Shown here piece by piece: positions 1-4,251 of a stretch of 4,251 nt of DNA. The notes beneath the pieces are model-generated. The model was not told the DNA's origin, searched no databases, and was given only the letters and a program-made list of their open reading frames with translations. The DNA is from a virus (taxonomy: Duplodnaviria; Heunggongvirae; Uroviricota; Caudoviricetes), in the IMG/VR virus record IMGVR_UViG_2648501485_000018; one strand, given 5' to 3'. Position numbers and translations under genes: made by a program. The stretch's first letter is position 1, and every line of letters begins with the position of its first letter.

Positions 1-3000
1 TCCCGGATAGCTATACGCTATTCCGTTAAAGATAATGGGCGGAATAATGATTTGACGGTCAAAGTTATGATCATCGCTGATGGTGACTGTAACCGTCCCG
101 TTTGGTGTTTCCGTGTTACCCCACGTACCAGCCTGTTTCGGAAATGATTTGGATACAGCTTTAACGAAATCCCCTCTGACTTGGGTCGCCTCCAGCATGC
201 CCTTAATCGTACAGTTTTCATTTACCGTGACATTGTTGAGCGTCCCGGCGTTCGCATTCACACTGCCACTGATATCCGCATTTTTAGCAGTCAGCTTTCC
301 GTCCGGTGTCAGGGAAAATGCCGGTGGATTGCCACCGCTGGTAATAGTGGGGGCCGTCAGGCGTTTCAGGAACACGTCATTCATGAATATCTGGTTGCCC
401 TGCGCCACAAACATCGGCGTTTCATTCCCGTTTGCCGGGTCAATAAACGCGATACGGTTAGCGGCAACCAGAAACTGGCTCAGCTTGCCTTCCTCCGCGT
501 CCTCCATGCTGAGGCCAATACCCGCGACATAATGTTTGCCGTCTTTGGTCTGCTCAATTTTGACGCCCCACATGGCATTCCATTTATCGTTAGCGTCCTT
601 CCACTCTTTCGAAAACTCCTCCAGTTTGCTGGCGTTATCCTCCGTCAGCTCAAAGTTTTCCAGCAGTTCCTTGCCGAGATGCGTTTTATTGATCAACCCT
701 TTATAAAAATTCAGATAACCTTCCGCATCATCGCTCGCCCGACCGACGGCCTCCACAAATGCCGATTTACCTACGGTGTTCACGCTGCGGATATAAAAGT
801 AATAATCATAACCCGGCTTAATATTGCTACTGGCGGCTATCCAGTACAGCGCCGTACCAAGATAACGCGCGCTGGTTTCAACCTGCCTGATATCGATAAT
901 CCGCTTTTCCGAGAACCAGAACTCAAACTGCACCGTCGGGTCATATACAGCCAGTTTCGGGACCGCTGTTATCTGAAAATACCCTGGTATCAGTTCAATA
1001 GTGACAGGCGCTGCCGGTGCCGCAATCCGGAACGATACCGATGCCGGATCGCCCTGCTGCCCCCACGCATTTACCGCCCGGACTGTCAGCGTGTAACGCC
1101 CCAGCGCCAGTTGCGTGAAGCGGTATGTGGTTTCCGTCGTCCGGGCCGTGCTGACCAGCCGCTCACTGCCGTCGTCCGCTGTTACGGTCAGACGGAGCAG
1201 GAAGCTCACGCCCTTCACCACCTTCGGTGTGTCCCAGCGCGCCAGCACCTGATACTCCCCGCTGTCTGCGGTGACTTCGGCAGTCAGGTGCTGCACCGCT
1301 GGCGGCGTGACACCATTCACCGTGCCGCTCTGGTCGCCGTCAAAGTGCGCCCCGTTATCCACGATGGCCTCTTTTTCCGGGACATGCTGCACGGCTGTGA
1401 CAGCGTACGTGCCGTCGTCGTTCTCACGGACACTCACGCAGCGGAACAGGCGCTGGCGCAACGTCGGCAGCTTCAGCCCCCATACGCTGTATTCAGCAAC
1501 ACCGTCAGGAACACGGCTCACTTTTACCTTCACGCCGTCGGTGACGGACTGAACCTCCACGCTGACCGGATTGCCACTTCCGTCAACCAGGCTTATCAGC
1601 GTGGTACCGGAGGATGGCAGCGTGATTTCACGGTCGAGCGTCAGCGTCCGGGTCTGGCTGTTCACCGCCAGCACACGACCACCGGTGCTGATACCGGCAT
1701 AGTCATCATCACAGATTTCAATGACATCGCCCGGCACATGGCGAAGCCCTTCTGCGCCCACGCAGAAGTCCACGGTCTGCGTTTCCAGCAGTTCTGTTTT
1801 AATCAGCCACAGCCCGGCGCGGTGTGCCTGCCCCCGGCTGGTACAGCCAAAAGCATCCATCTTCGTGACGTTACGACCATAACGGGCAATGGCCTGCGAA
1901 TCCTCCACAAGCTCTGTCGCCGTCTCCCAGCCGTTATCCGGGTCAATCCAGTTAACCTCAACAGCATTATGGCGGTCCTTCAGGGCGCTAAAACTGTAGC
2001 GGAACGGCGCGCCATCATCCGGCATCACCACATTACTGCGGTTATAGGTCCACACCTTATCCGACGGTCGGTCCTGCACGAACGTCAGCGTCTGCCCGTT
2101 CCATACCGGCATACAGCGCATCGCCGAGCAGAAATCACTGAGCACATCCCACGCCTTGCGCTGTGTGGTCAGGTACGCATTACAGGTGATGCGCGGCTCC
2201 GTGCCGCCAAAGCCGTCCGGCACCGACTGGTCGCAGTACTGGCCGATGACATACAGCGCCCATTTATCCACATCCGCCGCACCAAGACGTTTCCCCATGC
2301 CGTAGCGCGGATGGGTAAGCATATCCCACAGACACCAGGCCATGTTGTTGCTGTATGCCGGTTTAAACGTTCCGTCCCAAATACCGCTGTATTGCCGCGT
2401 CTGCGGGTTATAGTTCGACGGCACCTGCAGAATGCGCCCGCGAAGATGATAATTACGGCTCACCTGCTGGCTGCCGAACTGCTCCGAATCCACCTGTACG
2501 CCGACCAGTGCCGTGTTCGGGTAGCACTGTTTCACATCGATGATTTCGGTGTATGACGACCAGAGCGTTTTGTTCTGCAGCTGGTCTGTGGTGCTGTCCG
2601 GCGTCATCCTGCGCATCCGGATATTGAACGGGCGCGCCGGCAGGTTACCCACCACCACCGAGGCCAGATACTGCGAGGTGGTTTTGCCCTTAATGGTGAT
2701 GTCTTTTTCCGTCACCCAGCCACCGTTACGCTGTATCTGAACCAGCAGGCGGACTTCCGACGGATTCCGGTCCCCCTTTGAGGTGGTTTCCACCAGTGCC
2801 TGCACACCGAAGGTAAAACGCAGACGATCGATGTTTGCAGACGTGATAGTGCGGGTGATCGGCGTGTCGTATTTCACTTCCGTACCCAGCACCGTCTCAG
2901 AGCCGGAGGATTCAAATCCCTCCGGCGGAGTCTGCTCCTGCTCACCAGCCCGGAACACCACCGTGACACCGGAGATATTGGTATTACCCTCACTGTCCAG

Positions 3001-3156
3001 CACCGGCGTACTGTTCAGCAGCACGCTTTTTAATCCATCCACCGGACCGTCAATCGGCCCTTCACTGATGGCATCAATCACACTCAGCAGCTGCGAGGAC
3101 TTCAGGTTGTCCTTCGCTTCGCGCGGGGTATGCCCCTTACTGCTGCCTTTACCCAT
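1..3156 (-). CDS. J: Tail tip central fibre / host specificity protein J (lambda gpJ family); 3' end beyond the window, 1052 codons present
   Basis: ATG at 3156..3154 on the minus strand, preceded by GGAG (plus 3165..3168) with an 8-nt spacer. Hand translation gives [19 protein letters not shown] at the N-terminus, [20 protein letters not shown] from 2041..2100, and [20 protein letters not shown] from 1021..1080 (FN3-like region), all in the same frame. These match my recollection of lambda gpJ. Codons in 1..360 were checked one by one and contain no stop, so the ORF runs off the left edge. It is absent from the ORF track only because it has no stop inside the window. Lambda gpJ is about 1132 aa, so roughly 80 codons are missing. 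Confidence 0.95.
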
Positions 3157-3170
3157 TCCTCACGCTCCAT

Positions 3171-3198
3171 AAACGACAAAACCGCCCGCAGGCGGTTT
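3171..3198 (-). terminator. Perfect 8-bp inverted repeat (stem-loop) followed by a U-rich tract in the I-J spacer; possible weak intrinsic terminator or RNA-stability hairpin
   Basis: Plus 3179..3186 aaaccgcc, loop 3187..3190 cgca, plus 3191..3198 ggcggttt, which are exact reverse complements. On the minus-strand transcript the stem AAACCGCC-UGCG-GGCGGUUU is followed by UGUCGUUUAU, then the J ribosome-binding site and ATG. Confidence 0.3.
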
Positions 3199-3216: not shown

Positions 3217-3483
3217 TCAGCGACCAATCACCACAACCTGACCACCATCCCCTTCATCTGCCGTGCTGATCTCCTGAGAAACCACACGAGACCCCACACG
3301 CATTTCACCGTACAGAACGGGCAGAACATTGCCCTGGGCAACCATGTTATCCAGTGAGGAGAAATAGGTGTTCTGCTTACCGTTATCCGTTGTCTGCGTT
3401 CGGGGAGTTCGGGCTTTAGGAGCCAGCATCTGTGCAACACCACCAAGCGTCATCACTGGCACCCAGAGAAAACAGAAGATCAC
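3217..3483 (-). pseudogene. I: Tail assembly protein I, C-terminal conserved portion in a different frame from the N-terminal part (frame-disrupted I gene)
   Basis: ORF-track protein ...LGGVAQMLAPKARTPRTQTTDNGKQNTYFSSLDNMVAQGNVLPVLYGEMRVGSRVVSQEISTADEGDGGQVVVIGR corresponds to the C-terminal 76 residues of lambda gpI as I recall them. 3860 and 3483 are in different codon phases, so this is a different frame from the N-terminal ORF. Stop TGA at 3219..3217. Possible restart codons are GTG 3483..3481 (overlapping the upstream TGA as GTGA) and ATG 3453..3451. Confidence 0.65.
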
Positions 3484-3860
3484 TCGAAAGCAATACCGAC
3501 TCCCGGCATCCAGATAGCAACAGCAATAACAGCCGCACCCAGCACTGCCTGAAAAACACCGCCACTTTTAGCACCCGCCAGACGCGGCACAATGTGGATC
3601 ACGGCACCATTTGCCAGCGGCTCATTAAGACGGGCAGATAATTCGGTTTCACCTGCATCACGCCCGGCAATCCGCACCTGATACCAGCCCTCATTCAGTT
3701 TCTGACGAAACGCCGGGAGCTGTGTGGCCAGCGCACGGATAGCTTCAGCCCCCGTTTTCACACGAAGGTCGATGCGGCGACCAAATCGTTGTAAATCCCC
3801 GTAAAGGCAGATGCGTGCCATGCCCGGTGACGCCAGAGGGAGTGTGTGCGTCGCTGCCAT
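3480..3860 (-). CDS. I: Tail assembly protein I (lambda gpI family), N-terminal portion; frame ends prematurely at TGA 3482..3480
   Basis: ORF-track protein MAATHTLPLASPGMARICLYGDLQRFGRRIDLRVKTGAEAIRALATQLPAFRQKL... matches the lambda gpI N-terminus as I recall it. ATG at 3860..3858 lies 103 nt inside the 3' end of K, the same overlap I recall for lambda K/I. Similarity to gpI is lost after about codon 110 (VLGAA, near plus 3531), and the frame stops after 126 codons. Confidence 0.8.
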   Translation of the reverse strand: MAATHTLPLASPGMARICLYGDLQRFGRRIDLRVKTGAEAIRALATQLPAFRQKLNEGWYQVRIAGRDAGETELSARLNEPLANGAVIHIVPRLAGAKSGGVFQAVLGAAVIAVAIWMPGVGIAFE

Positions 3861-4251
3861 TTGTCGGTATACCTCTCTCGTTTACTCAGTTGTTCAGGAA
3901 TATGGTGCAGCAGCTCGCCGTCACCACAGTAAATGGCGGCATGATTCGGCACCGATGAACCAAAACAGCACAGCAGCACATCGCCCGGCTGCGCCGCTGA
4001 CAACGGCACCTGATACAGCCCTGTGGCCTCCAGATTATCCAGATAGAGATTCTGACCGTTACGCCACCAGTCATCCTCACGATGAAAATCCGGCATCTCA
4101 ATCCCCGCCAGATGGTAAGCGTCCCGGAACAGCGTGTAACAGTCCGTCACCCCGTGCTCAAAGCGCCGCCCGGTAAGATGTGGCACACAGCGGAACTTGT
4201 GAATCGCCCCCCGGCAGACCAGCCACCACGGCAAATCACTCTGCACCTGCA
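3758..4251 (-). CDS. K: Tail tip assembly protein K (lambda gpK family), C-terminal NlpC/P60-like domain; 5' end beyond the window
   Basis: ORF-track protein (V/M)QSDLPWWLVCRGAIHKFRCVPHLTGRRFEHGVTDCYTLFRDAYHLAGIEMPDFHREDDWWRNGQNLYLDNLEATGLYQVPLSAAQPGDVLLCCFGSSVPNHAAIYCGDGELLHHIPEQLSKRERYTDKWQRRTHSLWRHRAWHASAFTGIYNDLVAASTFV matches lambda gpK residues from about 85 to the C-terminus as I recall them. The M at 4246 is an internal GTG (Val); the frame stays open to the window edge (the preceding bases read ..CTG CAG = LQ). Candidate catalytic Cys in the VTDCYTLF motif (codon at plus 4139..4141). Stop TGA at 3760..3758. Confidence 0.93.
   Translation of the reverse strand, partial: QVQSDLPWWLVCRGAIHKFRCVPHLTGRRFEHGVTDCYTLFRDAYHLAGIEMPDFHREDDWWRNGQNLYLDNLEATGLYQVPLSAAQPGDVLLCCFGSSVPNHAAIYCGDGELLHHIPEQLSKRERYTDKWQRRTHSLWRHRAWHASAFTGIYNDLVAASTFV

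Follow-up and report, generated by a model that had tools for sequence, protein, structure and literature searches.

A phage 434-type receptor-binding module at the end of gene J in a lambdoid virus fragment, with OmpC as its most likely receptor

We analysed a stretch of 4,251 nucleotides (nt) of viral DNA (IMG/VR record IMGVR_UViG_2648501485_000018, Caudoviricetes; below, the window is this whole stretch), in which gene J, coding for the tail tip attachment protein or central tail fibre protein, runs off the left edge. The part of J that we see is lambda-like through codon 969 and then, in what we regard as the probable reading of the locus, enters the start of a receptor-binding module of the phage 434 type, whose porin is most likely OmpC and not LamB. 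The divergent tail of J is the phage 434 ("h434") allele, and the choice of OmpC follows from the closeness of this tail to that of 434 J. On the minus strand, which holds all coding sequence of interest, gene K is present with its 3ʹ part, gene I follows, and J is covered up to codon 1052. The parts of J that carry the argument are the following.

1..3156, minus strand: gene J (tail tip attachment / central tail fibre protein), codons 1-1052, with no stop in the 1052 codons and with matches to lambda_TipJ and Pfam models
1..249, minus strand: J residues 970-1052, the divergent segment of the 434 type, 49% identical to lambda and 89% identical to phage 434
1..156, minus strand: start of the Pfam domain Ig_GpJ_C (PF12421), J residues 1001-1052, the match itself covering residues 1001-1047

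Departure of J from the lambda sequence

The J product of the window belongs to the lambda TipJ family. The NCBIfam model NF049904 (lambda_TipJ) covered residues 1-1047 with 2188 bits (cutoff 1950), and the Pfam domains were met in the order known from lambda, that is FNIII-A_GpJ, Phage-tail_3, Ig_J, Ig_J_second, Phage_Tail_Tip and Ig_GpJ_C, the last one being cut by the edge of the window. The neighbourhood is also that of lambda, with K (NLPC_P60) and I (Lambda_tail_I) directly upstream of J on the same strand. Lambda gpJ (NP_040600; PDB 8iyk, 8xcj, 8xck; receptor LamB) and the protein studied here are therefore alike in family, domain order, K-I-J synteny and the fold family of Ig_GpJ_C, but they differ in the variable loops, which are longer by two and by six residues in the 434-type tail.

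The likeness to lambda is not even along the protein. In the BLASTP alignment with lambda J (NC_001416) the overall identity was 93% over 1045 residues, with the mismatches gathered at the C-terminal end. Residues 1-969 were identical to lambda at 931 of 969 positions (96.1%), whereas only 41 of the 83 residues from 970 to 1052 were identical (49%), with an indel of two residues; for this contrast at the 969/970 split, Fisher's exact test gave p = 6.5e-30. The same step was seen in the DNA, where the identity to lambda, counted in segments of 90 nt, was about 94% up to window nt ~280 and then 43-63% over nt ~230-1. The first differences from lambda occurred at J nt ~2908 (window ~249) and the sharp break at J nt ~2966 (window ~191). 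The GC content of window nt 1-249 was 47.4%, compared with 57.2% for the remaining J, which fits an exchanged module.

With residues 970-1052 the central straight fibre reaches its last rungs and the receptor-binding domain begins, the first third of it being included. The Pfam model of this C-terminal domain, Ig_GpJ_C, was matched here over profile positions 1-48 of 135, the rest of the profile being beyond the window, and a loop of 13 residues in the visible part of the domain holds the two-residue insertion with respect to lambda. A tail of the lambda, LamB-binding type was not what we found: the part that we see was 49% identical to lambda, and in the closest relative of the window, a prophage of E. 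coli FDAARGOS_1059, the final 179 residues of J were 42.9% identical to it.

An initial annotation of this DNA, made from the letters and without database searches, had placed a departure from canonical lambda gpJ in positions 1-250, and had described the J C-terminus as a mosaic hotspot occupied by a non-lambda allele. Both points were borne out, the first by the fall in identity from 96.1% to 49% at residue 970 (window nt 1-249), the second by the match of the tail to phage 434 at 74 of 83 residues. The two J peptides quoted there are present in the minus-strand translation of window 1-3156. It had also said that about 80 codons of J lie outside the window. A part of the gene is indeed missing, the frame being free of stops up to the left edge, but its length is nearer to 85 codons by comparison with the 1137-residue J of the 434 type. 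The lambda peptide given in the annotation for comparison could in principle have been wrong, in which case J would not depart from lambda at all. We see practically no chance of this, as that peptide is exactly the one of J in NC_001416 in the aligned region, and the drop in identity, measured against the database sequence, rules out that there is no true departure.

Assignment of the divergent tail to the phage 434 allele

Compared with J of phage 434 (UMO75286.1, OL657226), the window protein was 96% identical over all 1052 residues, without a gap. Over residues 970-1052 it matched 434 J at 74 of 83 positions (89%) as against 41 of 83 for lambda, and in the DNA the identity to 434 stayed at 88-91% where that to lambda fell to 43-63%. 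All indels with respect to lambda are common to 434 and to the tail of the window type. The first of these, two additional residues in a 14-residue loop, is wholly within the window; the second, a longer loop of the form GIAYxxPGSGNNPGGT, starts with GIAYSYPG at the very end of the window and is complete in FDAARGOS_1059.

The nine differences in the visible tail, written from window to 434, are A970S, V978I, E980Q, S1004A, Q1008K, A1009V, N1019D, S1049D and Y1050D. When the last 185 residues of J were aligned, the window, FDAARGOS_1059, an Stx2c phage, PhiR26_1, mEp332, PhiR11_1 and 434 formed a tight 434-type clade with only ~14 variable positions. The tails of lambda and phage 21 were less than 60% identical to this clade and had other loop lengths.

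The window J is nonetheless not a copy of 434 J. Its junction with lambda-like sequence lies later, since residues 943-951 are lambda-like in the window but already differ in 434, and it carries two additional mosaic patches (residues ~716-735 and ~816-835). In the DNA these correspond to window ~907-1041 and ~637-771, which resemble neither lambda nor 434 (76-83% identity, compared with ~95% in the flanks). The patches map close to the beginning of the second Ig-like domain and at the border to the alpha-helical shaft, and they are shared with the FDAARGOS_1059 prophage.

The closest relative and the complete module

The FDAARGOS_1059 prophage was the closest relative in the databases, with 98.3% identity over the whole window and 100% DNA identity over nt 1-235. 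Its J gives a view of the complete module. It has 1137 residues, as has 434 J, and is 96% identical to 434 J throughout, with no gaps; over the last 179 residues the identity is 93%. The C-terminal end typical of the 1137-residue 434-type J (...KKAASGISIR; in longer form ...VIVTKKAASGISIR) is present in it, and Ig_GpJ_C is nearly whole, with 134 of the 135 Pfam positions covered (E = 7.8e-28). Downstream of J, as in 434, there are a lom-like gene of 600 nt, a side fibre gene (stf) of 1314 nt and a fibre assembly gene (tfa) of 270 nt. By analogy with this relative, the window probably derives from a similar effector-carrying lambdoid prophage of a strain resembling enteropathogenic or enterohaemorrhagic E. 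coli (EPEC/EHEC).

As a separate observation on the relatives, past the tail fibre genes the FDAARGOS_1059 prophage holds type III effector cargo, namely EspW and DUF1076/NleG-like genes, together with IS2; the counterpart cargo downstream of J in phage 434 is NleB/NleC/NleH.

Distribution of the 434-type tip

Tips of this type are long known and very common, and there is nothing new in the J module of the window. The divergent stretch of 235 nt had matches with at least 80% DNA identity in 2,100 of 5,426 complete E. coli genomes (~39%), and in ~1,075 of them the identity was at least 95%. The receptor-binding end was present with at least 90% protein identity in 74 phage records, which include Stx1a and Stx2c phages as well as mEp460, mEp332, Evi, 2B8, ev207 and the PhiR series. 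The K-I-J backbone as such was found in 4,653 of the 5,426 genomes, the copy number per genome having a median of 3 and a maximum of 15. The 434-type tip ranks among the J tips that are standard in lambdoid phages of E. coli.

The Stx1a and Stx2c phages of O157:H7, and PhiR49_1, PhiR26_1, Evi, 2B8, ev207, mEp460 and mEp332, share the 434-type module with the window: their tails are 90-99% identical in protein to that of FDAARGOS_1059, and the identity of their DNA over window nt 1-681 is 93-96%, but they carry it in other mosaic backgrounds. For receptor data on mEp332, on PhiR26, PhiR11, PhiR49 and PhiR29 and on other carriers of the allele, no relevant paper was found in the searchable literature; PMC12315714, which had seemed of interest, had no bearing on the matter, and a search on h434 gave no new data.

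Receptor and docking

According to PMC3509688 and PMC11101478, both of which cite Fuerst & Bingham 1978 and Hantke 1978, OmpC takes the place of LamB as the reported receptor of phage 434 and of lambda carrying 434 J, and the use of OmpC by J of the 434 type is also given in PMC12502783. The most likely receptor of the window J is accordingly predicted to be OmpC. The proposal of the initial annotation that this phage probably uses an outer-membrane receptor other than that of lambda gains support in this way, the support being one of homology to a J reported to use OmpC and not LamB.

How such a tip could engage its porin is suggested by related structures. In lambda, the three C-terminal Ig-like domains of J put four bottom loops into the LamB trimer, upon which the tail tip opens (PMC11101478). 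When the PDB was searched with the sequence of the tail, the best matches were 9wca and 9wcb, entitled 'A8 gpJ 713' (E = 4e-43), followed by lambda J in 8xcj and 8iyk (E about 1e-34). A8 stands for a J chimera that was engineered and that depends on OmpC (PMC11338833; Brodel et al., Nature 2024), and OmpC is also present in 9wcb; since this entry holds the A8 tip together with OmpC, it is a structural precedent for the docking of a J of the lambda family on OmpC. The A8 chimera is the best PDB match to the tail and the best structural model for docking of the window module, but it belongs to another clade, near the tip of phage 21, and is clearly less like the window than 434 is (about 50%, with many mismatches and with loop differences).

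The window J is a mosaic in which the sequence from codon 970 on, through the final beta-prism rungs and into the Ig-like domain that binds the receptor, belongs to the 434 clade. We propose that this module has passed between lambdoid phages through homologous recombination in the conserved J body. By analogy with lambda J on LamB and A8 on OmpC, the trimeric domain would insert its bottom loops into the trimeric porin, and this docking may trigger the opening of the tail tip and ejection, as that of lambda does on LamB.

The laboratory hybrid lambda h434 imm21 (OM418627) is informative about the part of J that matters. The crossover from lambda to 434, as placed by informative sites, lies between J nt 2115 and 2133, and the J part derived from 434 has only 8 residues unlike lambda before position 970, plus the divergent tail. 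So few differences before 970 fit a tail that carries the specificity. The hybrid also has lom, stf and tfa of 434.

Several points weigh against OmpC as the receptor, or against reading the locus as a working 434-type tip. OmpC is a putative receptor by homology. The 85 codons that lie outside the window make up about two thirds of the receptor-binding domain of this copy. Taken alone, the h434 genome leaves both J and the side fibre as candidates for the determinant of OmpC use, and the role of J comes from the cited genetics. Phage 21, which natively uses LamB, gains OmpC by a single J mutation and then OmpF (PMC11336670), and by eye its tip closely resembles the OmpC-using tip of A8. Among the nine differences between the window and 434, three (Q1008, A1009, N1019) are in the loop with the two-residue insertion and two (S1049, Y1050) are at the start of the next, longer variable loop; at position 1050, wild-type 434 has D, the laboratory h434 hybrid N and the window Y. 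Exact-match searches with both possible N-terminal products of gene I, with a 50-mer from the frameshift region of I (genome and viral contigs) and with a 59-mer from the J end (viral contigs) gave no exact copy of the locus, and the best BLAST match to the window was 98.3% identical. Lastly, gene I, upstream of J, contains two separate 1-nt insertions ~25 nt apart in a Gly/Ala-rich linker, as seen in the alignment with FDAARGOS_1059, 434 and lambda.

Variation in the exposed loops

The loop differences could have a consequence for the choice of the receptor, and a 434-like module might, by substitutions in its exposed loops, recognise another porin (LamB, OmpF or some other) or only certain alleles of OmpC. 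There are precedents for such a change. A single mutation or a few mutations in J switch or broaden porin use, as in the path of phage 21 from LamB to OmpC and OmpF (PMC11336670), lambda can gain OmpF (PMC11101478), and the OmpC-binding chimeras A8 and 1A2 accept different natural variants of OmpC (PMC11338833). Five of the nine substitutions with respect to 434 fall in the two variable loops that bear the indels, position 1050 with its D, N and Y among them. Against this stand the 89% identity to the 434 tail in the window and the 93% over the last 179 residues in the nearest relative, the fact that every indel with respect to lambda is common to 434, and the searchable literature, in which no member of the 434 clade is documented with another receptor. 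We therefore consider another porin, or a narrowing to certain OmpC alleles, to be rather unlikely for this tip. If anything has changed, a shift in the preference for OmpC alleles may be more likely than a shift of porin.

A more specific form of this idea is that S1049 and Y1050, together with Q1008, A1009 and N1019, retune the 434-type tip to a second porin or to a specific natural OmpC allele, for example one from EPEC/EHEC lineages; we hold it to be improbable as well. The S1049/Y1050 pair occurred, among eight other aligned sequences, only in the FDAARGOS_1059 prophage. The J tail of the laboratory h434 hybrid differs from that of wild-type 434 by D1050N and R1115W, and position 1115 also varies in nature, being W in the FDAARGOS_1059 prophage and in the Stx2c phage. 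Positions 1050 and 1115 may thus be sites that tune specificity or receptor use, and if the loops were indeed retuned, positions such as these would be natural specificity switches. The assignment of J loops to porin contact sites was based only on the positions of the indels and on variability.

With OmpC retained as the most likely receptor, the practical use of the allele call is that the tail tip of such a prophage can be annotated as belonging to the OmpC-type (434-like) class rather than to the LamB type. Knowing the class helps to predict host range, superinfection and receptor-based resistance, and also to choose J modules in the engineering of lambda-derived delivery particles. The 434-type module in the window is of low interest in itself, as it is a textbook host-range allele with matches in ~39% of complete E. 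coli genomes. With the module already described and a structural analogue solved with OmpC, its presence in so common a form amounts to expected mosaicism, of little import beyond correct annotation.

Gene I and the state of the prophage

Directly upstream of J, gene I is disrupted.

3217..3860, minus strand: gene I (tail tip assembly / plug protein), disrupted, with a Pfam Lambda_tail_I match on the N-terminal open reading frame
3480-3860, minus strand: N-terminal open reading frame of gene I, 126 residues, ending in TGA
3217-3483, minus strand: C-terminal open reading frame of gene I, 88 residues, in another frame, with a GTG start

The TGA that ends the first open reading frame and the GTG that starts the second share bases (GTGA). 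Relatives that have the same linker in frame measure 4249 nt over the region, as compared with 4251 nt in the window. The disruption concerns 3440-3500 in particular, and the local linker is unusually divergent, its best full-length match in complete E. coli genomes being 89% over 201 nt. The I protein is reported to plug the tip of the lambda tail (PMC11101478).

The broken gene I may indicate a defective prophage, or it may come from sequence errors. In the former case J would be unused for adsorption and kept as a recombination reservoir for lambdoid phages, an explanation that is compatible with the tail being the 434 allele. The break of the gene for the reported tail tip plug by two 1-nt insertions speaks for it, as does the number of regions matching K-I-J in E. 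coli genomes (median 3, maximum 15); recombination between temperate phages and defective prophages is reportedly documented. On the other side, the J frame and the visible K frame are intact, the two insertions could be sequencing errors, and the GTGA overlap leaves room for a gene I expressed in two pieces. We regard the defective prophage as a possible but doubtful explanation.

Other features of the window

The remaining features that we noted are gene K and a hairpin in the spacer between I and J.

3758..4251, minus strand: 3ʹ part of gene K (NlpC/P60, C40 peptidase-like tail tip assembly protein), Pfam NLPC_P60 with E = 2e-13
3178..3197, minus strand: GC-rich hairpin AAACCGCC-TGCG-GGCGGTTT (coding strand) in the 60-nt I-J spacer, read from the sequence

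The start of K is beyond the right edge of the window. K and I overlap by ~100 nt, as in lambda, and in relatives K is annotated as a C40 family peptidase. Neither the 1052 codons of J nor the visible part of K is broken. At the place homologous to the 3178-3197 hairpin, the phage 434 record annotates a terminator; a simple terminator scan made no call in the I-J spacer, the T tract of the hairpin being too weak.

The plus strand antisense to J contains a stop-free frame of 802 codons, in which an open reading frame of 791 residues is listed at 181-2556. The matching frame antisense to J is stop-free over 705 codons in lambda and over 585 codons in 434. The 791-residue open reading frame looks like a shadow of J arising from codon bias rather than a gene.

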